NCBI GenBank assembly: GCA_964462525.1
Contig: CAYWWY010000001.1
Location: 183,074-247,073 of the forward strand
DNA from: an uncultured Thermotogaceae bacterium
Lineage (GTDB): Bacteria > Thermotogota > Thermotogae > MWEM01
Direction of reading: 5' to 3'
Length of the DNA: 64,000 bases
In this document: in pieces, positions 1,643 through 35,069 of the stretch
How positions within the stretch are numbered: the first letter of the stretch is position 1
How the letters are laid out: the number at the start of each line of letters is the position of its first letter
Position numbers and translations under genes: made by a program
The notes under the pieces: generated by a model
Databases searched by the model: none
Told to the model about the DNA's origin: nothing
What the model saw: the letters and a program-made list of their open reading frames with translations, nothing else

Positions 1643-1656
1643 AGAATTCGCTGTAT

Positions 1657-5827: not shown

Positions 5828-6289
5828 ATGTTGGTTCGAAGGGTACAAAGCGATTGGGACAACTTTTACAAACCGTTCTTGTCGATGCAAAGGGAGATTG
5901 ACAATCTTTTTTCCAACTTTCTTTCTGGGGAACGAGGCGCTAGTATCGATCGATCTGGTTGGAGGGTTCCCAGCGTAGATGTATATGATACTGAGAAAGA
6001 GTTTGTATTTGAATTTGAACTCCCGGGTTTTGACAAAGAGGATGTAAAAGTCAACGTGCAGAACGATGTGTTGACCGTGGAGTGTGAAAAAAAACTCCAG
6101 AGAGACTCCAAGGAAAAGAACTATCACCTTACGGAACGCCAAGGGCTTTGTTTCAAGAGGCAGTTCAATCTTCCAGACACGGCAGAATCTGACAAGACGT
6201 TCGCGCAATTTGAAAAAGGAGTTCTAGAGATCAGAATGCCGAAAAAAGAGGTTGCTCAGCCAAAAAGTATCGACATTCAAGTGAAATGA
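5828..6289 (+). CDS. Small heat-shock protein, Hsp20/alpha-crystallin family.
   Basis: Alpha-crystallin domain reads VDVYDTEKEFVFEFELPGFDKEDVKVNVQNDVLTVECEKK...GVLEIRMPK. ATG 5828 lies 7 nt after GGAGGTG; the ORF-track start at 5819 is a GTG. Confidence 0.85.
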   Translation: MLVRRVQSDWDNFYKPFLSMQREIDNLFSNFLSGERGASIDRSGWRVPSVDVYDTEKEFVFEFELPGFDKEDVKVNVQNDVLTVECEKKLQRDSKEKNYHLTERQGLCFKRQFNLPDTAESDKTFAQFEKGVLEIRMPKKEVAQPKSIDIQVK

Positions 6290-6310
6290 CCCATATCGCA
6301 AAAAAGCAAA

Positions 6311-6337
6311 AGGGCTGTTGATGACAGCCCTTTTGTT
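6311..6337 (+). terminator. Rho-independent terminator after hsp20.
   Basis: AGGGCTGT-tgatg-ACAGCCCT hairpin followed by TTTTGTT. An A-rich run sits upstream, so it could also terminate the convergent regulator gene. Confidence 0.75.
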
Positions 6338-6370
6338 CTAGTTCTCAAAAATAAGAGGAAAGGGATCTCT

Positions 6371-7126
6371 CTAGAATGGAATCCAATAAGCACGACCATC
6401 AGGTGTTCGTTGCAGAAACCCATATTCGATCAAGTATCGGCGCACCATGACATAATCATCAATTACGTTCATCAGAATTCGATTGATTTCGGATTCCTCA
6501 TATTTGATCCCTTTCTTCAAATGTTCCTTTATTATGTGTCTCAAGATGATCCATTTAGATTTTTGCTTGTTTGGAAAAACAATGATCTTTCCATTTCGGT
6601 CAACATACTTTTCTATCATTTTCTGCGCCTCTTCTTCTGTCACCGAGTATCGATCATCGATCATAGTTGCAGTTTTTGGGTATTCTACGAGCTTGTCTTC
6701 TCTTTTTTCCAATACTTCCACTAATTCCCACAGGGCAAGGAAAATCCGTGCCTGTTTCGCTTTTTCTCGGAGCCGAAAGCGGTGATTTCGGACAGTGGAT
6801 TCGCTTACCTTCATCTCCTGAGCAATATCCCGATTGCTTTTCCCATCATGGAGAAAAGTAAGTAAGACCGTTTGGGTTTCGCTCAACACTGAAAAACGCT
6901 GATCTAACTCCAACAGAAAGTTCCACGTTCCTCCGTGATCACATCGAATATGAAGATCGATTGCCTTTTCAGCAAGGTATAGATCACCTTCGACCTCATA
7001 GACCTTCCCTTCTTCATATACTCGTCCACAGACCAGGCAGATCCATTTTTTCTCTTCCGGAATCCAAAAACTTCCTGCTTTTAGATCTTCAGCAGGGACC
7101 TTCCAAAACCATTCATTCAGATCCAT
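6371..7126 (-). CDS. Putative transcriptional regulator with an N-terminal Cys/His zinc-ribbon-like motif, a central LuxR/GerE-type HTH and an uncharacterised C-terminal domain.
   Basis: HTH segment LLTFLHDGKSNRDIAQEMKVSESTVRNHRFRLREKA. N-terminus reads CLVCGRVY...HIRCDHGG. It is transcribed divergently from the metF-metH operon. Confidence 0.55.
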   Translation of the reverse strand: MDLNEWFWKVPAEDLKAGSFWIPEEKKWICLVCGRVYEEGKVYEVEGDLYLAEKAIDLHIRCDHGGTWNFLLELDQRFSVLSETQTVLLTFLHDGKSNRDIAQEMKVSESTVRNHRFRLREKAKQARIFLALWELVEVLEKREDKLVEYPKTATMIDDRYSVTEEEAQKMIEKYVDRNGKIIVFPNKQKSKWIILRHIIKEHLKKGIKYEESEINRILMNVIDDYVMVRRYLIEYGFLQRTPDGRAYWIPF

Positions 7127-7393
7127 CGTACCACCTCCATGGTCTGATTATATCACATAACATAAAATATTACAAACGTATACAGATAATGTCTACATAT
7201 ATAGATCATATTTCTGGATATGTTTGACTATCACTAGGCATTGGATGAACTGAGAACTGGATCAAAGACGGCTTAGCCGGGGAAGCAAACAACAGGGGGA
7301 AGATGGAATGGCGCGGAAGGGACCATTGTGTCTTTCTTCGGTTTCGAATTTCGGGGATGATGAAACACTGAATCGCTCAAAAACCTTTTGTCA

Positions 7394-7402
7394 TGGTATA
7401 AT
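7394..7402 (+). promoter_or_regulatory. Extended -10 (TGGTATAAT) of the metF-metH operon promoter.
   Basis: tcaTGGTATAATc lies 45 nt upstream of the metF ATG. The same TGGTATAAT element recurs in front of two other genes in the window. Confidence 0.5.
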
Positions 7403-7447
7403 CATCGCAGAATTTGGTGACGAGATCCTTAGATATTGGGGGTACTT

Positions 7448-8347
7448 ATGAAAAACAGAATAGCAGCATTCATGAACAGCCTATCGAGACCCTTTTCCTT
7501 GGAAATCTTCCCGCCAAAAAAAGAACATCAAAAAGCTTTTGAGTTTGTCTTGAGAACGATCGAAGCCCTCTGCCCCACGAACCCTTCATTCATCAGCGTA
7601 ACTTATGGTGCAGGCGGATCGAATAAAGGAAAAGTCGTGCAGATCTCTCACGAAGTGCTGGAAAGAGGAATCCTCCCGCTCAGTCATTTGACAGCGGTCG
7701 GATTTTCGAAGGAAGACGTCCGACTGGTTCTTGACCAGCTGCATGAAGCGGGAGTGCGCGCGATTCTCGCTTTGAGGGGAGATATTCCGAAAGGGGTTAC
7801 TTACCCAGATGGGGCGTGGAAAGACTTTCACCTTGCCATAGACTTGATCCGGCTCGTGCGAGAAGATGGCCGATTCTGTGTGGGGGCTGCAACCTATCCG
7901 GAGGGCCACCCTACCCATCGCGATCCAGATCGCTCGGTCGAGCATTTTGCTATCAAAGCATCTGCTGGGGCTGATTTTTTTATCTCCCAAATGTTTTTTG
8001 ACAACTCTTGCTTCTACCGTTTCGTGGATACAGTTAGAAAGCGCGGGCTTTCTCATCCAATCATTCCCGGAATCATGCCTTTGGTAAAAAAGATCCAAAT
8101 CCAGAAAATCCTCGAATTATCTGGGGCAATGATTCCCAAAACTCTGCTTGAATCAATTGAACGGTATCAGGATGACCCAGAAAGCTTTTGCCAAGCAGGG
8201 ATCGATTTTGCAACTCAACAGGTCCTCATGCTCAGAGATCAAGGAATCCCCAATGTTCACCTCTATACAATGAATCAACCTGATCCGATTCTGAAAATAC
8301 TCACACAAGCAAGTCTTTTGGATGAAAAGGAGATCCACAATGGATAG
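7448..8347 (+). CDS. metF: 5,10-methylenetetrahydrofolate reductase (MetF).
   Basis: FSLEIFPPKK...ISVTYGAGGSNKG...HLTAVGFSKED...ILALRGDIPKG matches MTHFR conserved blocks. The ORF-track start at 7436 is a TTG, so the first ATG (7448) was chosen. Confidence 0.8.
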   Translation: MKNRIAAFMNSLSRPFSLEIFPPKKEHQKAFEFVLRTIEALCPTNPSFISVTYGAGGSNKGKVVQISHEVLERGILPLSHLTAVGFSKEDVRLVLDQLHEAGVRAILALRGDIPKGVTYPDGAWKDFHLAIDLIRLVREDGRFCVGAATYPEGHPTHRDPDRSVEHFAIKASAGADFFISQMFFDNSCFYRFVDTVRKRGLSHPIIPGIMPLVKKIQIQKILELSGAMIPKTLLESIERYQDDPESFCQAGIDFATQQVLMLRDQGIPNVHLYTMNQPDPILKILTQASLLDEKEIHNG

Positions 8348-10682
8348 AGCAGAGTTTTCGGACCGAATTCAAAAAGAAGTGATTCTTTTGGACGGTTCAT
8401 ATGGCGCAAACCTCCAAATCAAAAGGTCGGATGCCCGCGCAGTGGAAATGTACAATATCAAAGACCCCGATTCTGTATTGGACCTTCATAAGGCTTATGT
8501 GCTCGCTGGGTCCGATCTGATCCTTACGAACTCCTTCAGCGCAAATCCACTTAAGCTAAAGATGCTTGGATTGGAGGGACTATTCGAACCAATAAATCGA
8601 GCCGCTGTTCATATAGCGAAGAAAGCTACCCAAGGAAGGAGTTGGGTATTTGGAGACATCTCTTCTTCGGGGCATTTTGCGCAACCATTTGGAGAGCCTT
8701 CTTTTGAAGAGTTGGAAGAATGCTTTTCTCAACAAGCCCTGGTTTTATTCGATTCTGGAGTGGATGGAATCCTTTTGGAAACCTTTACAGACATCAAAGA
8801 ACTGAAAGCTGCTATTTCTGGTGTGCGAAAGATCGCTCCCCATATCCCTTTAATCGCTTCGATGACCTTTACCGAGGAAGGAAGAACAGTATCGGGAACA
8901 CCGGTTCACGGATTCGGGATCCTAATGGAAGATTTGGACGTGGATGTGGTCGGGATTAATTGTACGCTTGACCCCAAGCAAATTATCCCGATTGCGCGTT
9001 CTCTGATGGAAGCAACTTCAAAACCCATCTGCGTCCAACCCAATGCAGGGAAACCGATCACGATTGGCCAAGAATCTCGATACGATCTGAGTCCCGATCA
9101 GTTTCGGCTTTATATGGAAGATTCTCTGGATTTGGGGGTATCTATGGTTGGTGGCTGCTGCGGAACAAACCCGAAGCATATCCACGAATTGCGGTTGCTC
9201 CTCGAGATTTACCATCGAAGCGAAACTAAGAGATTGGTTCACCCAAGGCTTTTTGTCACATCACGAACTTACTGTATTTCACCTGCCCCGTTTATGATAA
9301 TTGGAGAACGGATCAACCCTGCTTCTCGGAATGATTTTCAGAAAGAGATTGCGGAGATGGATATGAGAACAGTAATCCGTGAAGCAGCCAGCCAAGAACA
9401 AGAAGGAGCCGACGTATTGGATCTGAATTTGGGAATTGAAAAAGGCTTAACGCCTGATCATATACGAAAAGCAATCTGCGATTTGGATCGGGCGTCTTGC
9501 GTACCTCTTTCCATTGATATCCAAACGCGGGAATTACGGGAAACTGCATTGAGAGAATACCCAGGTCGCGGAATTATTAACTCCGCACGGATTACCCCAA
9601 AAAGCTTGGAATTTGCTATTCATTGTCTGAAGCAGTACGGAGGGTTAGTCATCCTATTGGGTATGGGAAAAACAGTTCCCGATACAGCCCTCGAACGGTT
9701 TCAATTGATCCTTAATGGGATTCAAGAAATGGAAAACGCTGGCATTTCTCGTGACCGTATCTTGGCTGATCCCTTGGTCTTGACAATTGGAGCGGGAAAC
9801 AAACCAAAAACCACGCTAGAAGCAATCCGATTGTTACATGAACAAGGGATTCGAACTACATTAGGTCTGTCCAACCTGAGTTACGGGATGAGAAATCGGA
9901 GCCATATCAATGCCGCCTTTATTTCTCAAGCCATAAGTGCTGGATTGGATAGCGCGATCATGAATCCAGCGGAAAAAATCGTCATGAATGTTTTAGATGG
10001 CAGTTTAACCCTACAAGGAAAAGAACGAGAAAACACCAATATTGGCGTGGATGACCCATTGATTCGGTCTTTGCTGCATGGAGATCTTCATACTGCCGAC
10101 CGTTTGATCCAAGAAAAGCTTGAAACTGGCCGTAAATCGGATATTGGTCAATCGGTTCTTGGAGAATCTCTTCAAGAGATTGGAGAGATGTACGCCAACG
10201 GAACCTTGTTTTTGCCTCATCTTCTTATGGCTGCTCAAACCGCAGCACCAATCTTCGACCGTTTGAACACCCTAGTAGGAAAACGGAGTCGGGCGATTGG
10301 CCGCGTTTTGCTGGCAACTGTTGAAGGGGACGTACACGATATTGGAAAGAAAATTATCGGGACTGTTTTGCAGAGTGGAGGATTTGAAGTGGTAGATATT
10401 GGAATCGACCAGTCGTCTCAGGAGATCCTTGATGCGGTTCTTAGGGAAAAGCCGGATATTGTCGGTTTATCAGCGATGATGACGACCACTATTGGAAAGG
10501 TCGAAGAGTTTTCCCGACTCCGCAAAGAGGTTCATCTTTCAATTCCCTTAATCTGCGGCGGGGCATCTCTTAATGGAGAGCTTGCCAAGAGCTTTGGGTG
10601 CGAAGGATATTGCGCCAATGCCTCAGGTGTAGTAAAACTGTGCAAGCAACTCCTTGGGAAGGAAGTGGTTCCATTTGATTGA
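8340..10682 (+). CDS. metH: Cobalamin-dependent methionine synthase core (Hcy S-methyltransferase, pterin-binding and B12-binding domains). The AdoMet reactivation domain is absent.
   Basis: LLDGSYGANL...GGCCGTNP (zinc/Hcy site), then the B12-binding DxHxxG block VEGDVHDIGKKIIGTVLQSGGFEVVDIG. At 781 aa it is too short to contain the activation domain. ATG 8340 is preceded by AAAGGAG and overlaps the metF stop (ATGGATAG). Confidence 0.85.
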   Translation: MDRAEFSDRIQKEVILLDGSYGANLQIKRSDARAVEMYNIKDPDSVLDLHKAYVLAGSDLILTNSFSANPLKLKMLGLEGLFEPINRAAVHIAKKATQGRSWVFGDISSSGHFAQPFGEPSFEELEECFSQQALVLFDSGVDGILLETFTDIKELKAAISGVRKIAPHIPLIASMTFTEEGRTVSGTPVHGFGILMEDLDVDVVGINCTLDPKQIIPIARSLMEATSKPICVQPNAGKPITIGQESRYDLSPDQFRLYMEDSLDLGVSMVGGCCGTNPKHIHELRLLLEIYHRSETKRLVHPRLFVTSRTYCISPAPFMIIGERINPASRNDFQKEIAEMDMRTVIREAASQEQEGADVLDLNLGIEKGLTPDHIRKAICDLDRASCVPLSIDIQTRELRETALREYPGRGIINSARITPKSLEFAIHCLKQYGGLVILLGMGKTVPDTALERFQLILNGIQEMENAGISRDRILADPLVLTIGAGNKPKTTLEAIRLLHEQGIRTTLGLSNLSYGMRNRSHINAAFISQAISAGLDSAIMNPAEKIVMNVLDGSLTLQGKERENTNIGVDDPLIRSLLHGDLHTADRLIQEKLETGRKSDIGQSVLGESLQEIGEMYANGTLFLPHLLMAAQTAAPIFDRLNTLVGKRSRAIGRVLLATVEGDVHDIGKKIIGTVLQSGGFEVVDIGIDQSSQEILDAVLREKPDIVGLSAMMTTTIGKVEEFSRLRKEVHLSIPLICGGASLNGELAKSFGCEGYCANASGVVKLCKQLLGKEVVPFD

Positions 10683-22026: not shown

Positions 22027-23553
22027 CTATTGTATCACAAAACTTAGGATGGAAGTGATCAGCAAAAGAAGAAGAAAGATGGTCAACCATATGTTCCGGT
22101 AGGCAATATATGGTGTGGAGGGAAGAGGATCAACGGGAACCTCAAAGACATCCCATGAAGATTCAAAGGGAGGAAGCCGTTGAATGATTCGACCATACGG
22201 ATCGACTAACCCTGTGATTCCGTTATTGGAAACTTGAAGCATCCATCTTCGGTTTTCCACAGCCCGAAAGGGAAGAAAAGCGAAATGAGTCTCTAAGCCA
22301 ATTAGATTTCCAAACCAACCATCGTTTGTTACCACAACCAATATCTCAGCGTGGTTTTGATGAAATGCTGAGAAAACTTCCGGATACAAGGACTCAAAAC
22401 AGATCGGAAATCCGATGGAACGATTCGCAACTTCAAAGACTGTAGCATCGGGGCCTTCTTCAAAATAGGCATAGAGCATGAGGAATTCAAAGGCTCTGAA
22501 CAAATCCCCATAAGGAAGGGTTTCCACAAAAGGCGTTAGTTTCATCTTTCCATAAAAGTCTGTGCTTAGGCCCGAAAAGGGATATACAATCCGAACCGCG
22601 TTATAGTACCTTTGGTCTTCGATTTTCGGATGAGGAACAACAATCGGTATGCCGATTTCTCGCGCTGTTGCCTCAACCACTTGAAGGGTCATCGGTGACT
22701 TGGCAATATCGTATTGAAAGTGAGATTCAGGAAAAACAATCAGGTCCACATCTTTTCTGGTTTGGATGAGATCTGATATCGATGCTTCAAAAGAACGAAT
22801 GAAGTCAAACTCAGAATAACGATACTTTTCACGTGGTTCGACCCAGGGCTGCATGACAGCAATCTTAGTCTTCTCGGCCATGTGGGGTTGGGTTGGAGGG
22901 ATGAACGCAATGATTAAGGAATTGACTAAATAGGCTGCCCCGATACAAAGCAATCCAATTCTCACCGCATTCAATCGGAAAGAGGGAAACCCTCTTCCCC
23001 AGGCATAGGCGACCCAGGCATTGGTGAATCCGATGATCCATAGTAACAGTTCATTCCCCCCGAATGCAGCGATTTGCAGCAAACCGAAATCCCGATAAAG
23101 GCTGTCTGAGAAACGGTATCCCGTAAACCCCATGGGACCCCATCCGCGAAGTAATTCCGTGAATACAAGCAATGAAGGGATAAAAAGGAGAAATAACCAT
23201 AAGCGTTTTTCGATCTTTGGGTAAAACGCGCAATAGATCGCACCAAACAATCCAAAAAAGAAGGATTGGATCAAGCATAGCAATAGATAGACAACAATAC
23301 CCACTTCGCTTGGAAACCGCTCGAACATATTCGGTATCTCATTATAGAAAGTAGGGATGATCCAATGAAGGCAAATGCCAAAATAGATCATACCGAACAA
23401 AATGCCCCGAATGAATCCCTTCCAAGGAGAACACCTTTTTAAGATGATTAAAAAAACGGAAAACCCTACCCATATAGGGAATGAAAATCCAAATCCAGGC
23501 ATACATACGGCCAAAACACCGGCAGAAGCGATCAACATTCCCCATTGCTTCAA
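22027..23553 (-). CDS. lnt: Apolipoprotein N-acyltransferase (Lnt).
   Basis: N-terminal polytopic region plus a C-terminal CN-hydrolase domain (IAVMQPWVEPREKY..., KMKLTPFVE). 508 aa. Confidence 0.7.
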   Translation of the reverse strand: MKQWGMLIASAGVLAVCMPGFGFSFPIWVGFSVFLIILKRCSPWKGFIRGILFGMIYFGICLHWIIPTFYNEIPNMFERFPSEVGIVVYLLLCLIQSFFFGLFGAIYCAFYPKIEKRLWLFLLFIPSLLVFTELLRGWGPMGFTGYRFSDSLYRDFGLLQIAAFGGNELLLWIIGFTNAWVAYAWGRGFPSFRLNAVRIGLLCIGAAYLVNSLIIAFIPPTQPHMAEKTKIAVMQPWVEPREKYRYSEFDFIRSFEASISDLIQTRKDVDLIVFPESHFQYDIAKSPMTLQVVEATAREIGIPIVVPHPKIEDQRYYNAVRIVYPFSGLSTDFYGKMKLTPFVETLPYGDLFRAFEFLMLYAYFEEGPDATVFEVANRSIGFPICFESLYPEVFSAFHQNHAEILVVVTNDGWFGNLIGLETHFAFLPFRAVENRRWMLQVSNNGITGLVDPYGRIIQRLPPFESSWDVFEVPVDPLPSTPYIAYRNIWLTIFLLLLLITSILSFVIQ

Positions 23554-24716
23554 AGCGTTTCCACCCCTCGCTTTACCCGATCGACCACGTACTCCTGCTC
23601 CGCGGAAGACAGTTGGCTGTGAAAGGGCAGCGCTATCGTCCGAGCCGCAATAGACTCCGTTATGGGAAAGACGCCTGGTTTGTATCCAAACATCTTTTGG
23701 TATACCGGTTGGAGGTGAATCGGCCGAAAGTATTCACGACACCCCACTTCTTCTTTTTCCAAAAAGGAGAGCAGTCGATCTCTTGGAATATGATGATCTA
23801 AAAGAATGACATAAACAAACCAACTCATTCTTGTCGTAAACGGTCCAATGATGGGCGTTTGTACATAGCAACAGTCTCGAAAAAGCTGATTGTATCGATT
23901 CGCAACCGCTGCTCTTCGTTCCAGCAATTGATCCAACCGGTTTATCTGCTGGACTCCCAAAGAAGCAGAAAGCTCATCCATACGAAAATTATACCCCAAT
24001 TCAACATGATTCAGCCATTGTTCATTAATGCCTCTCCCTTGGTTTCGCAGAGACCGCGCCATTTGGTAGAGGTCATGGTGATCGGTCACCAAAACACCGC
24101 CCTCTCCAGTGGTCATCTGCTTGTTGGGATAAAAGGCAAAAGCTCCGGCAATGCCGAACGATCCGCATGGTTTTCCTTTATAGGTTGCTCCAATTGATTC
24201 ACATGAGTCTTCAACGATTTCAAGCCGATGTTTGTTACAGAGAGCAGTAACAGCATCCCAGTCCAAAGGCTGTCCGAAAATATCAACGCCAATGACCCCC
24301 TTTAGGCGATTGCTTTGGTAATGTACCCTTCCATCACCAATGGTAAGTCGACCTTGTATTACTTGATTAATGGTTTCAGTAAGAGCCGATGGGTCCATGT
24401 TTAGGGTTACGGGATCAATATCCGAGAAGATCGGAATCGCCCTCTCATAGAGAACTATATTGCTTGAGGTAACAAAAGAAAAAGGAGTCGTAATCCATAA
24501 ATCTCCTTTTTGGAGATTCAGAAACTTCATGATAAGCATAAGTGCACTCGTTCCGCTGTTTACAGCAACCGCAAACCGCACGCCCGCACGTTGTGCGCTG
24601 AGCCGTTCCAATTCTTCCACGTGTGGCCCCATACTAAGGGTACCGCTTCGCAAAACGCCGACCACTGCGTCGATTTCTGCTTGACCGATGTCTGGTCGAG
24701 ATAAGGGTACTTTCAT
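23550..24716 (-). CDS. DegT/DnrJ/EryC1/StrS-family PLP-dependent sugar aminotransferase.
   Basis: VPLSRPDIGQAEIDAVVGVLRSGTLSMGPHVEELE..., 388 aa. Overlaps lnt by 4 nt. Confidence 0.8.
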   Translation of the reverse strand: MKVPLSRPDIGQAEIDAVVGVLRSGTLSMGPHVEELERLSAQRAGVRFAVAVNSGTSALMLIMKFLNLQKGDLWITTPFSFVTSSNIVLYERAIPIFSDIDPVTLNMDPSALTETINQVIQGRLTIGDGRVHYQSNRLKGVIGVDIFGQPLDWDAVTALCNKHRLEIVEDSCESIGATYKGKPCGSFGIAGAFAFYPNKQMTTGEGGVLVTDHHDLYQMARSLRNQGRGINEQWLNHVELGYNFRMDELSASLGVQQINRLDQLLERRAAVANRYNQLFRDCCYVQTPIIGPFTTRMSWFVYVILLDHHIPRDRLLSFLEKEEVGCREYFRPIHLQPVYQKMFGYKPGVFPITESIAARTIALPFHSQLSSAEQEYVVDRVKRGVETL

Positions 24717-25705
24717 GAAGATATGACTCCTTCCGATGCTTTGGTCAATTCTTTGTCAACTCCTTTTGCGGCAACAAGCAAAGCGTTTTTGATGGCCTGA
24801 GCATCCGAGCTTCCATGAGCTTTCACAACTGGCGCTTTTGTTCCCATAATGAACGCGCCTCCTGTGTTGCGATAGTCTAGTCGTTCTCGAAACCCATTTA
24901 AGGATTTTCGGATGAGCCCCCCTCCAATTTTTGCTCCCAATCCTCCTTGAAGAATCGATTCTTTCATTCCAGAAAGGATAAACTTAGCCAATCCTTCTAA
25001 GGTCTTTAAAACCACATTCCCCGTAAATCCATCAGTTACGACTATATGGACTTTGCCAAGGTTGATATCTCTTCCTTCAACATATCCCACAAATGAATCG
25101 GGAAAGAATTCTTTGATCAGAATGGATGCTTTATGGAGTTCTTCTAGCCCCTTCTCCTCTTCTGTTCCCACGTTCAGCAATCCGATTTTTGGGGAATGGA
25201 CCCCGTTCATTTCCGCATACGCTTTACCCAAACGGGCAAATCCCAAATAGTGTTCCGCCTTGCACTGAGTATTTGCTCCGCTATCAATCAGGATCGTCCA
25301 TCCCAAAACGCTAGGGATCAAAGTTGCAATCGCAGGTCTGGGAATCGTTGAAAGACGGCCAACCACAAATGTTGCGACCGCAAGAAGACCACCAGTATTC
25401 CCCGCGCTAACCAGCGCTTGTGCCCTTTGCTCGCGCACCTCCTGAGCCGCTTTGTACATCGAAGCGTCTTTGCGTTTTAAGATCATTGATGGCCGTTCCT
25501 CTGTACCAAAAACATCAGGCGCGTGAAGAACGCGAATCCTTTTCGGATTCTTATACTTGGCCAGCAAGGGATGAAGATCCGATTCATTTCCTACGAAAAG
25601 AATCGTATGGGTAAATGTAGGTTCATCAAGCGCAAGAATGGCTCCCTCGACAAGAGAGTGGGGAGCGTGATCCCCTCCCATTGCATCAACCGCTATTGTA
25701 GCCAT
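24713..25705 (-). CDS. plsX: Phosphate acyltransferase PlsX.
   Basis: MATIAVDAMGGDHAPHSLVEGA... at the N-terminus, 330 aa. Confidence 0.85.
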   Translation of the reverse strand: MATIAVDAMGGDHAPHSLVEGAILALDEPTFTHTILFVGNESDLHPLLAKYKNPKRIRVLHAPDVFGTEERPSMILKRKDASMYKAAQEVREQRAQALVSAGNTGGLLAVATFVVGRLSTIPRPAIATLIPSVLGWTILIDSGANTQCKAEHYLGFARLGKAYAEMNGVHSPKIGLLNVGTEEEKGLEELHKASILIKEFFPDSFVGYVEGRDINLGKVHIVVTDGFTGNVVLKTLEGLAKFILSGMKESILQGGLGAKIGGGLIRKSLNGFRERLDYRNTGGAFIMGTKAPVVKAHGSSDAQAIKNALLVAAKGVDKELTKASEGVISS

Positions 25706-26561
25706 GATTATCGACTCCTTCTTGTTGATTGATCACGTATGCCCGAAACCCGCGCATGAGCTCTTGAGTAATCGGGCCAATTGATTTAGGAATCCCTTGA
25801 ATTGCACTTATGGGCACAATTTCCGCCGAAGTGTGGGTTAAAAAGAGTTCATCCGCGTCGAAAAGCTCAATAAGTTCGATAAACCGTTCCTCAACGGGAA
25901 CCCCAAGTTCACGAGCAAAATCTATGACAATTTCGCGAGTAATCCCGCTAAGGATTCCTGAATGAATCGATGGGGTCAAAACTACTTGGTTTTTCACGAA
26001 AAAAACATTGCTAAAGGTACCTTCAGCCACATGACCTTGGTGGTTCAGCATCAGTCGATCATAAAAAGGGGGATGAATCTCTCTTCGCGCGATGATTATG
26101 TCTGAAGCCCCCGATAGTTTTACCGCTGCTCCATGTTCGACTGGTACATATCGTCGAATCCGAGAAAGAGCTACTTGAACGCCATTTGTTTCAATCAGAG
26201 GATCTTTGGGCTCTAGTGGCTTGAATACAATGACGATCATTGGCGTCAAGCCCTCTTCACGCATCTGGTAATGACCTTGGCCTGCGCTCAACTGGATTCG
26301 GATATTGGCCTCGGGCAAATTGTTGCGGTAAACACCTTCCTCGATTACTGTCCTGAGCGAATCCAAGGAAACAGGAACTGGAATACCCAATACACCCGCT
26401 GAATAACAAAGTCTGTGATAATGACGGTCAACGGCAAAAGGTTTTCCATCATAAGTACGAAGAGATTCATAGACTGATTCCCCAAATAGAAAACCCCTGT
26501 CCCAGAGAGATATTCGCGCTTCTTCGCTATCCTGCCACTTCTGATTCAGATATACCCACAT
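25686..26561 (-). CDS. Class IV (fold-type IV) aminotransferase, either branched-chain/D-amino-acid aminotransferase or 4-amino-4-deoxychorismate lyase-like.
   Basis: ISLWDRGFLFGESVYE...EGTFSNVFFVKNQVVLTP. An internal ATG (26561) was chosen so that the gene does not overlap the upstream gene by 71 nt. Confidence 0.65.
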   Translation of the reverse strand: MWVYLNQKWQDSEEARISLWDRGFLFGESVYESLRTYDGKPFAVDRHYHRLCYSAGVLGIPVPVSLDSLRTVIEEGVYRNNLPEANIRIQLSAGQGHYQMREEGLTPMIVIVFKPLEPKDPLIETNGVQVALSRIRRYVPVEHGAAVKLSGASDIIIARREIHPPFYDRLMLNHQGHVAEGTFSNVFFVKNQVVLTPSIHSGILSGITREIVIDFARELGVPVEERFIELIELFDADELFLTHTSAEIVPISAIQGIPKSIGPITQELMRGFRAYVINQQEGVDNHGYNSG

Positions 26562-27870
26562 ACTCCGACACCACCCGACCCATATACAGTTCATCAAAAG
26601 AGCGAATCCTGCAATTCATGATGAATTGGTTTGTCTGATTGTCAACAGGCAAACCCTCTTGGATGGCAATCCAGTGTTCGAGATAGTATTCATCGTGGCC
26701 TGTCATCCAACCCGCTTGTTTGCGCTCAAACAAAACTGGACGAATTTCGTTCAAGTGGAGTTTCCTATAGCGAACCGAAGATTCGATGGCTTGTGCATTC
26801 AAGAACCACGAACGGTCTCTCTTCTTTCGTTCGTCCACTTGTCCCGTCATGGCTGCTGCTTGTGTTCCTTTTCGCGGTGAAAAGCGAAAAATGTGCGCTT
26901 TAACAAACCCTATGGATTGAACCAAACGGACTGTTTCTAAGAAATCTGTTTCTGTTTCGCCCGGAAACCCAACGATGAGATCGGTCGAAAAACTGAATTT
27001 CTGGTTTACTGAGCGCAACCGGTCTACCCACTCATATACTTTGTCGATGGTATACTTCCGATTCATTTTCCGTAAAACTTGGTTGGAACCGCTTTGGATG
27101 GATAGGTGAAGATGAGGGCACATCTTTGTGTGTCGGAAAATGGGAACCCATTTATGGGATTCACCCTCGGGGTTTAGGGAACTGACTCTAAGGCGAAAAT
27201 CCCCAGGAATACATAAAATTTGGTCGATCAGAGAAACCAAATCCGTTTCGTTTCCTTGAAACGAATTGTCTTTATACAATTGAAGATTGATCCCAGTTAG
27301 CACGACTTCTTTTACGCCTTGGTCTACCAACCCCTTTATTTCTTGAACGACCCTTTCGACCGGTTTGCTATTTGGTGTTCGACCACGCGCTAGAGGGATA
27401 ATGCAATATGAGCATGCTTGATTACACCCTTCTTCGATCATTACACCTACTCGATGATGAACCCCATTGGGGCAAAGGCGATGATGGAGAGATCGTGTTT
27501 GGTTATAATCGAAAGGGATAAAGGCTTGGGTCGAGATTGAATCGTCTTCGATAATCTCCAAAAATCTGTCTTTATATTGATTGCCAACGATTCGATTGCA
27601 CTCGGACCAGAACAGATGAGGGTTTAACTGAGCCAAACATCCTGCAGCTACGATCTTTGACTCGGGATATCTGCGTTTCATTCTTCGAATCATTTGAAGA
27701 GACTTCCGTTCGGCTTCATTTGTCACCGCACACGTATTAATGATAATGCAATCACACTCCAGATCAAGGGCTTCAGTTACACTGTGACCCTGCTGTCGAA
27801 GTATTTGAAGCATCCACTGTGATTCGTATTGGTTCACTTTGCATCCAAGAGTCATCACTCGGACCTTCAA
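26527..27870 (-). CDS. Radical-SAM methylthiotransferase of the MiaB/RimO/MtaB family, most similar to MtaB.
   Basis: N-terminal MTTase domain (KVRVMTLGCKVNQYESQ), radical-SAM CxxxCxxC (CNQACSYC) and a C-terminal TRAM-like region. Confidence 0.75.
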   Translation of the reverse strand: MKVRVMTLGCKVNQYESQWMLQILRQQGHSVTEALDLECDCIIINTCAVTNEAERKSLQMIRRMKRRYPESKIVAAGCLAQLNPHLFWSECNRIVGNQYKDRFLEIIEDDSISTQAFIPFDYNQTRSLHHRLCPNGVHHRVGVMIEEGCNQACSYCIIPLARGRTPNSKPVERVVQEIKGLVDQGVKEVVLTGINLQLYKDNSFQGNETDLVSLIDQILCIPGDFRLRVSSLNPEGESHKWVPIFRHTKMCPHLHLSIQSGSNQVLRKMNRKYTIDKVYEWVDRLRSVNQKFSFSTDLIVGFPGETETDFLETVRLVQSIGFVKAHIFRFSPRKGTQAAAMTGQVDERKKRDRSWFLNAQAIESSVRYRKLHLNEIRPVLFERKQAGWMTGHDEYYLEHWIAIQEGLPVDNQTNQFIMNCRIRSFDELYMGRVVSEYVGISESEVAG

Positions 27871-28340
27871 AGGTTTTGTGCGCTTCCTTCCTCCGAGCGG
27901 ATTTCCTGCATGACCCCACTGAGAATTTGCATCCGGTTTACGATTCCTAACAAAGAACCTTCTGAACTAATCACTGGTAAAGACAAGAATTTGTGTCGGA
28001 TTAGCAAATCGGCCGCATGCAATAAGGTATCGTTCTCTTGGACTGTTACGATGGCTTGATTCATGAACTTTTGAATCGGTTCATTCCGAATTTCTCGAAG
28101 TTTCCTTTTGAGTTGATTGGTATCCGGAATGAACGAAGCAGATTGAAGCATTCCGAAGTAGGAAGGCATTACTGCATTGACAATGTCGTTTTCACTGATG
28201 TAGCCGACCAATCTCATGTCGTCGTCAACGACAGGCATTCCACTCCTCTGGTGATTGGAACAGATCCGAACGAACCGTTCCACTTTTTCATCTTCAAATA
28301 CTGCTGAAACATCTTTGATCATAATCTCTCCAACGACCAT
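27867..28340 (-). CDS. CBS-domain pair protein.
   Basis: Two CBS motifs are visible (...GMPVVDDDMRLVGYISENDI..., ...LSLPVISSEGSLLGIV...). Confidence 0.7.
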   Translation of the reverse strand: MVVGEIMIKDVSAVFEDEKVERFVRICSNHQRSGMPVVDDDMRLVGYISENDIVNAVMPSYFGMLQSASFIPDTNQLKRKLREIRNEPIQKFMNQAIVTVQENDTLLHAADLLIRHKFLSLPVISSEGSLLGIVNRMQILSGVMQEIRSEEGSAQNL

Positions 28341-28349
28341 CCATCCACC

Positions 28350-29324
28350 TCAATTCATCCGTTCAATGGCAATATGATCCATAGTTTGGTTGATTTCTTC
28401 CACTGGAGGCATCTCTTTTTTGATCCTGTGAGTCTTTGCAAGCGCTGAAGCCATTCCAAAATGAGCCATTTTGAGATAGTCCAAAGCTTCCGTTTGCTTT
28501 CTTTTTAAATAGTAATAGATCATACCTGCCATAAAAGCATCCCCAGTCCCCAATAAATGCGAGAAGTCAACTTCCTCGTCTCGAATCGAAAAAACCCAAT
28601 TTCCTTCCCTGGTTACAATAACATCTTGAAGGGTTTTATAGGAAATAACAACCAACTGAGCGCCTCTTCGAATGAGTTCTTTTCCTGCGTCAAAATAGTC
28701 GTCCAAACACTCCACATGCTGACCGAGGATTTTTTGATCACTACGCATGTCCGGACGTACTACCATGGGGCATGCTTGCATACTTGATTGCGTAAGTAGT
28801 TTTCCCCGGGCTTCCATGAATACGGAGTTATTCCTCTCTTGAGCAATTTGTGAGAGGGTGCCATAAATATTGAGAGGAATGCCCAAAGGCACTGAACCAG
28901 AAATCAAGATAAGGTTGGAATGGGAACAGAACGAATGATACCTTTTGAGAAAATGCTGAAGATCATCTTCAGAAACTTGAGGGCCAGGAGCATTTATCTC
29001 AGTGATCGTATGTTTTTCCTCATCAAAAATGGATATGTTTTCCCGACTTTCTTCTTCCATATGAACAAAGTTGACTGTAATGGATCGATATCTCTTCCGC
29101 AGTTCTTCCGAGATAACCCGGCCGATATACCCTCCGATAAATCCCATCGCAGTAGAAGGAATCCCCAAACTCGCAAGCATCATCGAAACATTGATTCCTT
29201 TCCCACCAGGATCCATATTGATCTTATCTCGATCATAAATCCGGTGCAAGCTGTTCGCACAGAAATTTTGTATGATGAACTCTCGATCCAGCGCAGGATT
29301 AAGGGTTACTGTGCCAACAATCAT
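28350..29324 (-). CDS. PfkB-family carbohydrate kinase (1-phosphofructokinase/tagatose-6-phosphate kinase-like).
   Basis: GGKGINVS near the N-terminus and the GTGDAF(MAG) anion-hole motif near the C-terminus. Confidence 0.8.
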   Translation of the reverse strand: MIVGTVTLNPALDREFIIQNFCANSLHRIYDRDKINMDPGGKGINVSMMLASLGIPSTAMGFIGGYIGRVISEELRKRYRSITVNFVHMEEESRENISIFDEEKHTITEINAPGPQVSEDDLQHFLKRYHSFCSHSNLILISGSVPLGIPLNIYGTLSQIAQERNNSVFMEARGKLLTQSSMQACPMVVRPDMRSDQKILGQHVECLDDYFDAGKELIRRGAQLVVISYKTLQDVIVTREGNWVFSIRDEEVDFSHLLGTGDAFMAGMIYYYLKRKQTEALDYLKMAHFGMASALAKTHRIKKEMPPVEEINQTMDHIAIERMN

Positions 29325-29337
29325 TTTTTCTCCCTCC

Positions 29338-31740
29338 TTATTTCTGCAAATCGATCTCTACTTCATCCCCTTCGCATAAAGGATCCAAGAATGCCGCGTT
29401 CTTCCCATTTAGACGGAGAGAATACCCTCGTAGGTTGCTCACATCAAGCCTCATTAATGGGAAAATATCCACAATCTTTGCAGTACCTTCGATCGATTCG
29501 ATAAACACATTCGATCCTTCGTACAGGGTGCTGTCCAATGTTCCTGGGGTATCATCGATCGTGATTTGGTAGGAGGTGACAGGGATTTTCGTTTCCTTTC
29601 CGTTCACCATGCACGTACAATATCTGATTCCGAAGTCTTTAAGGAGCATCCGAACGGTAGGCATCTTCTCCCGGGTTTTTGTGGTTATTACGGACCCCTC
29701 TACAAGGGGGGAGTTTGGATTAAGGGGGATCGCATCTTGGGAAGGGAGAATTTGGTGGCATTCTGTTTCTTTCCACAACACCGCTTTTGGCATGCCATTC
29801 ATCAGTAAACTGACATACTCTTTATGCTGTAGGTTCAAGTGATCGAGAACATCTTGTAGGTTCACTTGACGTGAAAACTGGATTTTGTCTTTGTCTTGTA
29901 CCTCGACATCTCCGTGTACTTCATTATCGTTTAAAAAGACCCGCGGCCAGATTTCATATACTGATCCGTTGACTAAAACCGGAATTTTATCAATAAACGA
30001 AGACAAGAATACGGTTGGGGTATGACCTTCTTCTCCCGGCTCAAATTGAATGATATCGCCATGTGATAGCCTTGTCCGAGTATTCGCTTCCTCTCCGTTT
30101 ACTTGAATCTTGCCCGCTCGGCCTATTGTTCCTCGAACAAATTGCAGCGAACCGTTGACTTCAAAGGCAATGGCCGGGCCTGGTTTTCCGATAATATCTT
30201 CCACACGATATCCCATTTGAAGAAGGGCTTGCATGACTGTATTCTTCCCGTCAATCGCCATTAAGTCAGTTGGGACACCATTAACGGTTACTCGAACAAA
30301 GACACTCCCTGTATGCGTCCCAACGCAATTCGCAATTCCAACAGGAGTGATGTATTCGCTTCCTTGCAAAAGATGGTTCGGGTCTATAACTGTAGGCAGA
30401 TTTTCGACCATCTTCAATGCTACGCGGCTTTGGGGAAGACCCAACTTTTCGGCAATCAGTTCAGAAAAACCTTTGACTTTCGCTCCTCCACCTACAATCA
30501 AAACGGCGGATGGTGGCTTTCCATTAAGGTTCAAAATTTCTGATGTAATTTTTGATGTGATTTCTTCCAATACCGGCATAACCATCTTTGTCCATTCTTC
30601 TTGATTGATTGTGACAGAACTATCTAAGATATCGGAAACTACGATCTCCGAAACCAAAGGATCTTTGCTCATTTCCCTTTTTACCTGTTCTGCTGTTTGA
30701 AAATCGAGTAAGTATTGCTCACATAAACGCTCTGAAATCTCGTCACCCGCCAACGGAACCATCCCGTAAGCAATAATCGTCCCGTCTCTTGAAATCGCAA
30801 TGTCGCTCGTTCCTGCACCGACGTCAACTAAAGCGATGTTCAGTTTTCTTAGGTCTGTGGGAACCACCAAACTCATTGCTGCAATCGGTTCTAGCGTGAT
30901 ATGCCTCGGTGTAAGGGTCGTTTTTTCTAAAACATTCATCATCGCATTGACAATGTACGCTGGAAGAAACGCGGCGATCACCTTAACGGACGCTTCTTTT
31001 CCCCTTTGACCTTCGAGATTCCTTATCCACTCTCCATCAAGAGAATAGTAAAGAACGGAATATCCCACACAGTACATCTCGTGGTTTTGAACATCAAGTT
31101 TATCTATGGACTCACTAATCGCGTTCATTTCCAACATCCGAACAGAGTCGGAAGAGATCGCATGATCACTTGATACATCCAAACGGGCTTCTCCGAGAGA
31201 AGTTTTCAAAAACCGTCCAGCCATTGCAACGGAAACCGAATGAAGCGGAAACTTGCTTTGCGATTGGAGGTGATCGGTCACCACGCGTACGATTCGGCTT
31301 ACCTTCTGAACATCATGAATCGCGCCATCAAGCATGGCTCTTTCCTCATGTTCCATCACAGCCACAGAAAGAATTTCTATGGATTCTTCCCGTTTGGCAA
31401 CAATCAACCCTTTTACACAACGTGTGCCAATATCGAGAGAATAGATGATATTTTCTGTACTGTTTTCCTTTTCGATCAAAACCACTCCTCGCTCAGAAAG
31501 AGTTATCCTCTTCACTGCATGTATTATATCACGATTTTCGTTCTCAAAAAACGGCCCTAAAGGAATTGTTTTCCCCCAATCACCCGTTTTGATTTCTTCT
31601 CTGATCGGGGCATATCGGAACCATGCGAAATCTACGGAAGGCATGCGAATTCGAAGCGCCGCATACATGGAGAACTGATCTAGAATTCGTGGTATAATCT
31701 GGTCAAAACAGGGAAGGACCGGTACAATTGAACGAAACAA
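29338..31740 (-). CDS. FtsA/actin-fold (ASKHA) ATPase domain fused to a ~330-aa C-terminal region made of 4-5 tandem ThiS/MoaD-like (beta-grasp) motifs. The exact start is uncertain.
   Basis: ATPase motifs IYSLDIGTRCVKGLIV...VAMAG... and NIALVDVGAGTSDIAI...VLIVGGGAKVKG are FtsA-like. C-terminal segments repeat a pattern such as VNGVPTDL..., EVNGSLQF..., IQVNGEEANTRTRLSHGDIIQF, VLVNGSVYEI...GDVEV, MVNGKETKI, and LRLNGKNAAFLDPLCEGDEVEI. The ORF-track start at 31740 is a TTG; internal ATGs at 31668 and 31644 are alternatives. Confidence 0.55.
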   Translation of the reverse strand: MFRSIVPVLPCFDQIIPRILDQFSMYAALRIRMPSVDFAWFRYAPIREEIKTGDWGKTIPLGPFFENENRDIIHAVKRITLSERGVVLIEKENSTENIIYSLDIGTRCVKGLIVAKREESIEILSVAVMEHEERAMLDGAIHDVQKVSRIVRVVTDHLQSQSKFPLHSVSVAMAGRFLKTSLGEARLDVSSDHAISSDSVRMLEMNAISESIDKLDVQNHEMYCVGYSVLYYSLDGEWIRNLEGQRGKEASVKVIAAFLPAYIVNAMMNVLEKTTLTPRHITLEPIAAMSLVVPTDLRKLNIALVDVGAGTSDIAISRDGTIIAYGMVPLAGDEISERLCEQYLLDFQTAEQVKREMSKDPLVSEIVVSDILDSSVTINQEEWTKMVMPVLEEITSKITSEILNLNGKPPSAVLIVGGGAKVKGFSELIAEKLGLPQSRVALKMVENLPTVIDPNHLLQGSEYITPVGIANCVGTHTGSVFVRVTVNGVPTDLMAIDGKNTVMQALLQMGYRVEDIIGKPGPAIAFEVNGSLQFVRGTIGRAGKIQVNGEEANTRTRLSHGDIIQFEPGEEGHTPTVFLSSFIDKIPVLVNGSVYEIWPRVFLNDNEVHGDVEVQDKDKIQFSRQVNLQDVLDHLNLQHKEYVSLLMNGMPKAVLWKETECHQILPSQDAIPLNPNSPLVEGSVITTKTREKMPTVRMLLKDFGIRYCTCMVNGKETKIPVTSYQITIDDTPGTLDSTLYEGSNVFIESIEGTAKIVDIFPLMRLDVSNLRGYSLRLNGKNAAFLDPLCEGDEVEIDLQK
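31690..31698 (+). promoter_or_regulatory. Extended -10 (TGGTATAAT) for the PP-loop ATPase gene.
   Basis: cgTGGTATAATct lies 30 nt upstream of the TTG start. GGGAAGGA is positioned as the RBS 8 nt before the TTG. Confidence 0.5.
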
Positions 31741-32720
31741 TCCATTCCATTATTACAGAAATCCGATCTATTGATGCTCCCAGACCCGTATATATTGCTT
31801 TCTCAGGGGGAATGGATTCGACAGTCGCCGCGAGTATTGCCGTCGAAGCCCTGGGAAAATCCCAAGTTATCCTGGTGCATGTTTCATTTGGCGAGTATGC
31901 CTATAGCCAGACGCAGAGCAACGTTTTGTTTGTTGCAAAGCGTCTTGGATGCGAGCTGGTATGGGTGAAGGGAAAATCGAAACAGGAGCAAGTATTGAGA
32001 TATGGGCCTTCATGCAATCTCTGCACAAAACGGGTGAAACTGGCCGGAGTACGTTCGGTAAAACCTTTTGAAGCTATTTTGATTTCTGGCGCAAATCAGA
32101 GTGATAGCTGGGGTACATATGGAAAAAAAAGGATGTTGGACACATATTCCCCTTTATTCGAGCTCGATAAACCCATGATTAAGCAGATGCTTGATCATTA
32201 TGGGATTCCACTCGATCGAGTTCGCGCCGGTGAGTCAGAACACCGTGAGGGATGCACACTCAAACACTTGATGAAGATGCTCGCAGCGCCTGCGTATCAT
32301 GGCTCAGCCGTATCGGAATCCAATGAAACCCTTCTTGGGATATTGCGCGAGAAAAAATTCCAGGCTTCCCTTGCAAACGTGAAAGTAATTGGTCCATTAA
32401 GCAGAAATATTGCTTTGGTGAATGTCCTTCCAACCCCAGATTCGTTAGTACGAGAGGAAATCTGCGAAAAAATCATGTCTATCAATACCATTGATGAAGC
32501 ACATTGGTTGGATACACCCATCCATCTTGAAGTGATCGCCAACCCCAGTGTTGTTCGGACCAAAGAAGCAAGATATTGGTTAGAAAAAGGGAAATTCGCT
32601 CCGGAATTTGCAGTCCCTGTTCGTTGCAGTTGGCGAGAATCAAAAAACACAAAACTCAGGACCTATCAAGTTGTCGGTTTTAAAAAGCAGTATTCAGAAG
32701 GGAATGAGATCATCATGTGA
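31728..32720 (+). CDS. PP-loop (adenine-nucleotide alpha-hydrolase) family ATP pyrophosphatase, of the LarE/TtuA/TIGR00268 type.
   Basis: SGGxDS PP-loop at VYIAFSGGMDSTVAAS, with a downstream CNLC cysteine pair. TTG start with a good RBS. 330 aa. Confidence 0.65.
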   Translation: MNETIHSIITEIRSIDAPRPVYIAFSGGMDSTVAASIAVEALGKSQVILVHVSFGEYAYSQTQSNVLFVAKRLGCELVWVKGKSKQEQVLRYGPSCNLCTKRVKLAGVRSVKPFEAILISGANQSDSWGTYGKKRMLDTYSPLFELDKPMIKQMLDHYGIPLDRVRAGESEHREGCTLKHLMKMLAAPAYHGSAVSESNETLLGILREKKFQASLANVKVIGPLSRNIALVNVLPTPDSLVREEICEKIMSINTIDEAHWLDTPIHLEVIANPSVVRTKEARYWLEKGKFAPEFAVPVRCSWRESKNTKLRTYQVVGFKKQYSEGNEIIM

Positions 32721-34022: not shown

Positions 34023-34079
34023 TCCAAATCGGTACGCCATAGGAAATTCAGACACTCCCATTCCATGGGTTCCATGGCA

Positions 34080-34088
34080 TGGTATAAT
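34080..34088 (+). promoter_or_regulatory. Extended -10 (TGGTATAAT) upstream of the DHH phosphoesterase gene.
   Basis: catTGGTATAATag lies 43 nt before the ATG at 34131. Confidence 0.45.
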
Positions 34089-34130
34089 AGAATTCGAAGG
34101 GGTTCAAACGCGACGAAAAGGGGAGCAAAG

Positions 34131-35069
34131 ATGGAACCGAACCAATTTCGCCTTGTAACTCGAAGTGATTTTGATGGGTTGGTTTGCGGAGTTTTACTGA
34201 AAGAACTGGATATGATCGAAGATATTCTGTTTGTGCATCCCAAAGACATGCAAGACGGAAAAATAGCCATTACTTCGCGAGACATTACGACCAATCTTCC
34301 CTACGTTAAAGGGGTTTATCTTGCTTTTGACCATCATTATAGCGAAACACTTCGTGTTTCGGAGCAAAAAAACCACATCATCGATCCTCAAGCGCCTTCT
34401 GCCGCCAGGGTTGTGTACAGCTATTTTGGTGGAAGAGATCGCTTTCCGGGAGTGTCGAATGAAATGATGGAAGCGGTTGACAAATCGGATTCTGCTCAGT
34501 TTTCGTTGGATGAAATCCTTCAGCCCAAAGGTTGGGTATTACTCAATTTTTTAATGGACGCTCGAACAGGTCTAGGACGATTCCGGAATTTCCGGATATC
34601 CAATTATTCATTGATGATGAAACTCATTGATTCCTGCAAAAAAATGACCATCGGAGAAATCCTTGAAGACCCAGATGTACAAGAACGATCTACCTTGTAC
34701 TTTTCGCAACAATCCAATTTCAAGAACCAAATCCTTCATTGCTCCAAAGAATTAGGTATGGGAAGCCTTATCGTACTTGACCTTCGGAGAGAAGAAACGA
34801 TTTATGTCGGGAACCGTTTTATGATTTACGCCCTTTTTCCAAATTCGAAAATATCCATCCACGTTATTTGGGGATTAAAAAAACAGAACACTGTCTTTGC
34901 CGTAGGAAAATCCATACTTGATCGTTCATCGACTGTAAACATCGGAGAACTTATGCTTCATTACCAAGGAGGAGGACACTCCAATGCCGGCACTTGTCAA
35001 GTCCCAAATGAAGATGCGGATGAACGATTAAAAGAGATCGTAGGCAAAATCCTTTCCTATGAAACATAA
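34131..35069 (+). CDS. DHH/DHHA1 phosphoesterase (NrnA-like oligoribonuclease/pAp phosphatase).
   Basis: DxD motif (TRSDFDG), DHH motif (LAFDHHYSE) and DHHA1 GGGH (QGGGHSNAG). ATG 34131 follows AAAGGGGAG. Confidence 0.7.
   Translation: MEPNQFRLVTRSDFDGLVCGVLLKELDMIEDILFVHPKDMQDGKIAITSRDITTNLPYVKGVYLAFDHHYSETLRVSEQKNHIIDPQAPSAARVVYSYFGGRDRFPGVSNEMMEAVDKSDSAQFSLDEILQPKGWVLLNFLMDARTGLGRFRNFRISNYSLMMKLIDSCKKMTIGEILEDPDVQERSTLYFSQQSNFKNQILHCSKELGMGSLIVLDLRREETIYVGNRFMIYALFPNSKISIHVIWGLKKQNTVFAVGKSILDRSSTVNIGELMLHYQGGGHSNAGTCQVPNEDADERLKEIVGKILSYET

Follow-up and report, generated by a model that had tools for sequence, protein, structure and literature searches.

The stretch of DNA analysed here (the window) covers 64,000 nucleotides of contig CAYWWY010000001.1 from an uncultured Thermotogaceae bacterium (assembly GCA_964462525.1), and on its reverse strand lies a gene whose product joins an actin-fold ATPase of the FtsA/PilM class to a C-terminal array of five repeats, which as a whole is predicted to be of the ThiS-type beta-grasp fold. 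The array is undescribed, but the family that carries it is common and has been annotated automatically. The repeats are fixed ubiquitin-like interaction modules rather than sulfur carriers or conjugatable modifiers, because they are internal to the polypeptide, lack a Gly-Gly end and are without an E1, a sulfurtransferase or a protease to work with. We consider that the protein is most likely an ATP-regulated, self-associating scaffold with a non-conjugatable ubiquitin-like arm that binds partners, an explanation to which we give a probability of about one half.

An FtsA/PilM-type core followed by five repeats

Residues are numbered here from the probable TTG start codon at 31479, which gives a product of 713 amino acids. 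The core of the protein (Table 1) matches the Pfam families FtsA, PilM_2 and MreB_Mbl, and a PDB sequence search with the protein returned FtsA at an E value of 3.8e-14. The NCBIfam equivalog model for FtsA, TIGR01174, gave 102 bits against a cut-off of 175.85, with the PilM and EutJ models scoring lower, and PRK09472 gave 48.7 bits against a cut-off of 409. When the full-length AlphaFold model (mean pLDDT 85.3, pTM 0.58) was compared with solved structures by Foldseek, the best match was FtsA (7q6i; E value 4.8e-28, target-normalised TM-score 0.85, 393 aligned columns), followed by PilM at 1e-21 and by EutJ, MreB and DnaK at 1e-15 or worse (5e-13 for DnaK). Superposition of the whole chain on FtsA structures covered 383–393 columns at about 20% identity. 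The initial annotation had recognized a complete FtsA-like core with both phosphate-binding loops, and this was borne out by motifs that are invariant in 57 sequences and by the match of the model to FtsA structures. The core is of the FtsA/PilM type, 1C subdomain included, and its nucleotide-binding loops are intact; it is not an FtsA orthologue.

The rest of the chain is repetitive. A motif of the form h-x-V-N-G...L-x-x-G-D/N occurs five times in residues 386–713, where 0.0066 occurrences were expected from 5,000 shuffles, and a motif of this type was found in no other open reading frame (ORF) of the window. The family alignment was cut into five sub-alignments, M1 to M5, which in profile–profile comparison with hhalign matched one another with probabilities of 74–98% (E values from 2.7e-5 to 3.7e-13), M2–M5 aligning with the last two-thirds of M1. 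The modules had initially been counted as four or five and described as short; there are five, and M1 is a full ThiS-like domain with an insert, the other four being shortened copies. Most of the near-invariant residues in the C-terminal half of the family alignment fall within M1, and the order from M1 to M5 is the same in Thermotogota and Bacillota.

Relationship to ThiS was seen at several levels. The Pfam ThiS model matched the whole window protein with 26.9 bits (cut-off 22.5), its best stretch, residues 530–563, beginning in the last strand of M2 and lying mostly in M3; in one homologue the score reached 65.9 bits, and 14 of the 27 family M1 segments were matched, with a best E value of 1.9e-8. 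The M1 profile aligned colinearly, in two pieces, with PF1061 of Pyrococcus furiosus (1rws), which is labelled hypothetical in the PDB and which we take to be ThiS/MoaD-like. This match, which is below significance (whole-sequence E value 0.054), suggests a ThiS-type domain with an inserted hairpin of about 23 residues. Scanned singly against Pfam, the modules of the window protein gave only sub-threshold matches to S4, Ub-Mut7C and ThiS: the ThiS signal arises from the array taken as a whole and from the homologues, not from single modules of this protein.

Structure prediction points in the same direction. An AlphaFold model of residues 370–713 had a pLDDT of 88.7, and its only Foldseek matches below an E value of 0.001 were bacterial multi-ubiquitin proteins of the Ubl3 type (9cd2, 1.4e-6; 9d5a, 1.2e-5), that is, proteins with tandem ubiquitin-like domains, which were also the best matches across at least 300 aligned columns. 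The linker between core and array is short and was modelled with low confidence; no helix lies beyond M5, and the chain terminates in the M5 beta-strand in the models. No membrane helix, signal peptide or transmembrane segment was seen in the window protein. The array is acidic, with a pI of 5.1 here and a family median of 5.1, and a terminal Gly-Gly is missing in 79 of 80 family proteins. The initial description, in which ThiS/MoaD-like beta-grasp modules are iterated and do not end in Gly-Gly, agrees with the Pfam and Foldseek matches and with the C-termini of 79 of the 80 members.

One member, L051 (gene end at about 9986), ends in ...DGDVIEVGGG, a ThiS-like triple glycine, and its closest relatives end in ...EVGWE. 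Bacillota members mostly end in the pattern h-x-h-x-W-E/D, with a conserved Trp two or three residues from the C-terminus.

Distribution and genomic context of the family

A scan of species-representative genomes, one genome per species, yielded at least 593 confirmed relatives, and the locus-level counts reported here cover the best 80 of them. These 80 are all full-length matches, with 38–62% identity in Thermotogota and about 34% in Bacillota (Bacilli, Clostridia and Negativicutes), plus one metagenome-assembled genome (MAG) of Methylomirabilis. Family proteins are 650–746 residues long, and no extra domain was recognized in the longer members. Shorter, three-module members of about 590 residues occur in Thermoanaerobacterales (L018, L021 and L068), with M1, a repeat resembling M2 or M4, and M5; their genes lie directly upstream of RodA/FtsW-family, M23-peptidase and M50-protease genes. 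When 1.84 billion representatives were searched with the C-terminal 326 residues, 564 of them, counted as clusters at 50% identity, were hit at E <= 0.001 and 210 at E <= 1e-10. Nearly all were proteins of about 700 residues matched at about 385–715; the shorter proteins appear to be fragments, so that the array is essentially confined to its fusion with the FtsA-like ATPase.

In databases the family goes under the names 'cell division protein FtsA', 'cell division FtsA domain-containing protein' and, once, 'ubiquitin-like domain-containing protein'; the first of these is a misnomer for its genes. No relative was found in viral contigs, and models of defence systems gave no significant match, the sole PADLOC hit being weak and partial (17 bits, E value 4e-4). 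The architecture had struck the initial annotation as foreign to described systems, and indeed no paper describing an FtsA-like ATPase with a beta-grasp array was found in the literature; the fusion is mentioned neither in two large surveys of prokaryotic beta-grasp domains nor in a 2024 study of bacterial multi-ubiquitin proteins (PMC11601603).

In the window, the gene heads a same-strand run, 23550-31479(-), in which no gap or overlap among the first four genes exceeds 14 nt; overlaps of 72 and 20 nt elsewhere in the run are due to first-start calls of the ORF finder. It is followed by genes for a PfkB-family kinase, a CBS protein, a MiaB/MtaB-like radical-SAM enzyme, a branched-chain aminotransferase (IlvE), PlsX and a DegT-type aminotransferase. 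By tblastn, the PfkB, CBS, MiaB-like and IlvE genes are kept downstream only in the five closest of the 80 loci.

Elsewhere the surroundings differ from lineage to lineage. Among the 17 Thermotogota loci, 11 (L005-L009, L011-L015 and L034) have mutS2, encoding MutS_V and Smr domains, upstream on the same strand. In ten of these at most 27 nt separate the two genes, which at the closest overlap by 3 nt, and in L013 mutS2 lies 1.3 kb upstream; L011 is an example, with mutS2 at 5710-8004 and the FtsA-like gene at 8001-10022. Such spacing suggests that the tightest pairs are translationally coupled. The linked loci span Thermotoga, Fervidobacterium, Petrotoga, Marinitoga-like MAGs and Pseudothermotoga, and the link is absent from the window, which contains no mutS2, and from its closest relatives. 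One clostridial group has nth (endonuclease III) upstream, in 11-13 loci, and a gene for a GAF-GGDEF membrane protein downstream. In Syntrophomonadaceae, genes for Mbl/MreB, a flagellar rod protein and a WecG/TagA-family transferase are found upstream and ctsR-clpC downstream; in Thermoanaerobacterales, RodA/FtsW-family, M23- and M50-peptidase genes are downstream; in Bacilli, it is a lone gene flanked by aroA and ytxJ-ytxH-ytxG-murC (names read from the translations). No partner gene common across lineages was found among the neighbour clusters of the 80 loci.

Gene limits, the PP-loop neighbour and other window genes

The initial annotation treated the gene product as an 800-residue protein. 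An ORF of 800 codons is present at 29338..31740(-), and public gene calls give 776 residues (P0001), but both are probably too long. The 56 aligned homologues all have their N-terminus about 10 residues ahead of 'IYSLDIGTR', none with an upstream extension; the TTG at 31479 is preceded by AGGAG, 5 nt upstream; and a 71%-identical orthologue is called at 715 residues. On these grounds the ORF appears over-extended and the true product is probably the 713-residue protein listed in Table 1. With the start so corrected, 248 bp separate the gene from the divergent PP-loop gene. Scans of the gene region with Rfam and for promoters and terminators gave nothing above chance.

Table 1. Positions of the gene, its domains and repeats, and the divergent neighbour in the window
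Feature	Position	Strand	Basis or remark
Probable true gene, 713-residue FtsA-like ATPase with predicted C-terminal beta-grasp array	29338..31479	-	Stop codon 29338-29340
Upstream part of the 800-codon ORF; probably untranslated 5'/promoter region shared with the divergent PP-loop gene	31480..31740	-	Extension seen in no homologue
Extended -10-like element, TGATATAAT	31531-31523	-	Consensus match only
FtsA/PilM-class actin-fold (ASKHA) ATPase core, residues 9-385	30325..31455	-	Pfam FtsA, PilM_2, MreB_Mbl; Foldseek FtsA/PilM
Approximate 1C (SHS2-type) subdomain insert, residues ~81-173	30961..31239	-	Secondary structure of the model; boundaries approximate
Phosphate-1 loop DIGTR, D16-R20	31420..31434	-	D16, G18, T19, R20 invariant in 57 sequences
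Phosphate-2 loop DVGAGTSD, D219-D226	30802..30825	-	Invariant in 57 sequences; aligns with FtsA DIGAGTMD
Adenosine motif GGGA, residues 330-333	30481..30492	-	G330-G332 invariant in 57 sequences
Repeat M1, residues 390-484; putative complete ThiS-type beta-grasp with ~23-residue inserted hairpin; best conserved module	30028..30312	-	Pfam ThiS on family M1 segments
Repeat M2, residues 486-538	29866..30024	-	hhalign against M1, M3, M4, M5: probability 95.7-97.4%
Repeat M3, residues 539-606	29662..29865	-	hhalign; most of the best Pfam ThiS stretch
Repeat M4, residues 607-666	29482..29661	-	hhalign M3-M4: probability 97.9%, E value 3.7e-13
Repeat M5, residues 667-713, includes LRLNGKNAAFLDPLCEGDEVEI; end ...EIDLQK	29341..29481	-	hhalign
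Divergent neighbour, 330-residue PP-loop ATP pyrophosphatase of an uncharacterised family	31728..32720	+	SGGMDS, C96-x2-C99; not a functional partner by the evidence

The divergent gene was correctly described at the outset as encoding a PP-loop ATPase with an SGGMDS motif and a CxxC pair. Its family, of about 325 residues, occurs in Thermotogota, Atribacterota and Armatimonadota under the labels 'ExsB family', 'LarE' and 'QueC', and has no members among Bacillota hits, although the FtsA-like family is common in that phylum. SGGxDS, C96, C99 and C176 are invariant across it, and the three cysteines are spaced much like those that bind the cluster in [4Fe-4S]-dependent thiolases such as TtuA. 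Only the N-terminal 130 residues or so of the window protein match known models. NAD_synthase of Pfam is the sole model over its cut-off (27.1 bits against 21, residues 8–78); LarE (TIGR00268, 35.7 bits against 150) and QueC (19.2 against 22) fall short. Against the PDB, the family profile found the ATP-pyrophosphatase domains of GMP synthase, NAD synthase, LarE and TtuA, over the N-terminal 170 residues or fewer, and a C-terminal region of about 200 residues is without a known domain. A profile search to place the protein among TtuA, LarE and QueC-like clades had been suggested initially; the profile matches to LarE and TtuA are confined to the N-terminus, and the LarE and QueC family cut-offs were missed.

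The pairing of the two genes is not conserved. By tblastn, the window PP-loop protein has no counterpart beside the family gene in any of the 80 loci, including those of relatives with 54% identity in which the synteny downstream is preserved, and a regular-expression search found an SGGxDS ORF of any kind nearby in one of the 80. Besides the window, only a single relative, 71% identical, has the two genes together, and it retains the whole local gene order. PP-loop homologues in Marinitoga, Pseudothermotoga and Atribacteria (L083, L084 and L085) follow a Metallophos_2 or S1-domain gene, and at these three loci the FtsA-like gene is never adjacent; in Marinitoga and Pseudothermotoga the PP-loop gene overlaps the end of the Metallophos_2 gene. 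Since the two genes are adjacent in none of the 80 other loci and together only in that one close relative, the PP-loop protein is, on this evidence, not a functional partner, and the adjacency seen here is a genus-level accident of gene order. The initial annotation had made much of this pair; what was found is a common fusion, annotated automatically as an FtsA paralogue, that has no linkage to PP-loop genes.

Further along on the PP-loop side, the proposed gamma-carbonic-anhydrase-like (hexapeptide) protein and alpha/beta hydrolase are present, but the assignment of the protein at 34065-35069(+) as a DHH phosphoesterase is weak, as it has no NCBIfam match and its sole Pfam match is a sub-threshold one to the C-terminal DHHA1 domain (21.1 bits against 25.9). 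The only Rfam hit in the window is a cspA thermoregulator (RF01766) at 1612-1963(-), with 85.1 bits against a gathering threshold of 78 over the full model, probably the sign of a gene for a cold-shock protein and its leader.

Possible function of the fused array

How might such a protein work? By analogy with FtsA, PilM and MreB, binding and hydrolysis of ATP would control self-association of the actin-like core, and the five-repeat acidic arm, which stands where FtsA has its C-terminal membrane-targeting helix, would recruit partner proteins. M1 could serve as a conserved docking module and M2–M5 as a spacer of variable length, because some lineages hold only three modules in total. PilM (2ych, 5eou), here the second-best structure and hidden Markov model (HMM) match, shares with the window protein the FtsA-type fold and the lack of a membrane helix of its own; unlike the window protein, it has no C-terminal extension, and no pilN, pilO, pilP or pilQ gene was found among the recurrent neighbour clusters of the FtsA-like genes. 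RpfB and YabE, which carry tandem DUF348 (G5-linked, ubiquitin-like) modules, are extracellular cell-wall enzymes, unlike a protein in which no export signal or transmembrane segment was seen. As to the partners, the recurrent Bacillota neighbours (rodA/ftsW, mbl/mreB, tagA-like genes and murC) fit weakly with a link to cell envelope or cell shape.

Several observations weigh against a scaffold of this kind. The beta-grasp fold of M2–M5, taken one by one, is deduced from homology to M1 and from multi-domain Foldseek matches, and at a pTM of 0.58 the arrangement of the modules is uncertain. The lack of a neighbour conserved across lineages makes any envelope link weak, and the coupling to mutS2 in most Thermotogota, together with nth in the clostridial group, points instead to quality control of nucleic acids or ribosomes.

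The last of these leads to the main rival, a nucleic acid- or ribosome-linked ATPase whose TGS- or S4-like modules would bind RNA, tRNA or ribosomes and which, in Thermotogota, would work with the Smr endonuclease MutS2. We regard it as rather unlikely. The close spacing of mutS2 (ten of the 17 Thermotogota loci, L013 being an eleventh at a distance), the position after nth, a possibly TGS-like fold and weak matches of the VNG...GD motif to S4 and YabO are all consistent with it. However, linkage to mutS2 occurs within a single phylum, may represent a single inherited gene order and does not extend to the window; the S4 matches are below cut-off and span only the short shared motif; and the acidity of the array argues weakly against RNA binding. 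The TGS domain of RelA/SpoT, ThrRS and Obg-type GTPases occurs once per protein in RNA-linked enzymes, unlike an acidic array on an actin-like ATPase.

The four other explanations are each contradicted by a tested feature. An Hsp70-like remodelling machine, in which the actin-fold ATPase would drive binding and release of clients by the beta-rich C-terminal domain, has the same domain order on its side (nucleotide-binding domain, linker, beta-rich region), and DnaK and Sse1 are distant hits. Yet it seems improbable, as the structural matches to FtsA and PilM are far stronger than that to DnaK, 1C is a subdomain typical of those two proteins, and the C-terminal region is predicted to be beta-grasp and not the substrate-binding sandwich of Hsp70.

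It is still less probable that the protein is the organism's own FtsA, tethering FtsZ to the membrane at the division site. The pipeline name says so, and FtsA (7q6i, 1e4f) is indeed its closest match by sequence and structure, with the same actin/ASKHA fold, 1C in place of 1B and the same three nucleotide-binding motifs. Against this stand the low identity and the missed equivalog cut-offs, and the replacement of the amphipathic, membrane-targeting C-terminal helix by a 325-residue array. The window gene also lies outside a division cluster, with no ftsZ nearby, and no ORF with the FtsZ signature GGGTG[ST]G was found within 6 kb of the gene in the 80 loci. Thermotoga maritima, furthermore, has both a 664-residue family member (AAD36352.1) and the 419-residue FtsA of PDB entry 1e4f.

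The initial proposal, that the modules are ThiS/MoaD-type sulfur or adenylate carriers, or a relay scaffold, serving the divergent PP-loop ATPase, is hardly credible in the light of these data. Its appeal lies in the ThiS-like modules, in the invariant motifs of the PP-loop family with their likeness to TtuA-type thiolases, in the weak N-terminal profile hits to TtuA and LarE, and in the pair retained by one close relative. The PP-loop family lives in unrelated contexts elsewhere, however, and the pair is found at none of the 80 loci. In contrast to ThiS, MoaD and SAMP, with which the array shares the predicted beta-grasp fold, it is not free-standing, consists of five fused copies, four of them shortened, and has no module ending in Gly-Gly. 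Nor was an E1-like adenylating enzyme, E2, JAB protein, deubiquitinase or sulfurtransferase found among the recurrent neighbours, and the seven small ORFs ending in Gly-Gly that came up as ThiS-like candidates near family genes in the 80 loci had no match to the module HMMs. Annotation should not propagate the sulfur-relay pairing that the window seems to show.

Equally hard to sustain is a polyubiquitin-like precursor that is cleaved into free modules for conjugation, as in the Bil/Bub pathways: these proteins (9cd2, 9d5a, 8u38) are the best Foldseek hits, hold tandem beta-grasp domains in one bacterial polypeptide as the array is predicted to do, and one family member ends in GGG, but the window protein has five repeats, an N-terminal ATPase and no terminal Gly, no Gly-Gly junctions separate its modules, whose identity and order are conserved like those of fixed domains, and the family genes sit in housekeeping contexts with no E1, E2 or deubiquitinase/peptidase gene recurring nearby and no significant defence-model hit. 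Bil/Bub pathways mediate protein conjugation, and the number of domains in their Ubl proteins ranges from one to three, Ubl3 having three; the operons that encode them also contain predicted genes for E1, E2 and a peptidase, and Ubl3 proteins self-assemble (PMC11601603).

If a self-associating scaffold with a ubiquitin-like arm is the right explanation, a widespread FtsA/PilM paralogue, found in hundreds of species of two phyla, would have exchanged membrane anchoring for a ubiquitin-like arm. Bacterial actin-like ATPases would then be connected with partners in a way not seen before, and ThiS-type domains would have a new role that involves no conjugation. A bolder version, which we put forward only as speculation, is that these proteins form an unrecognized class of bacterial actin-like filaments or oligomers, in which a polyubiquitin-like arm couples ATP-dependent assembly to client machinery, possible clients being quality control of the MutS2/Smr type in Thermotogota and the elongation and shape machinery in Bacillota. 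Such a class would provide an example, in prokaryotes, of a cytoskeletal ATPase that carries ubiquitin-like domains as fixed modules for recruitment.

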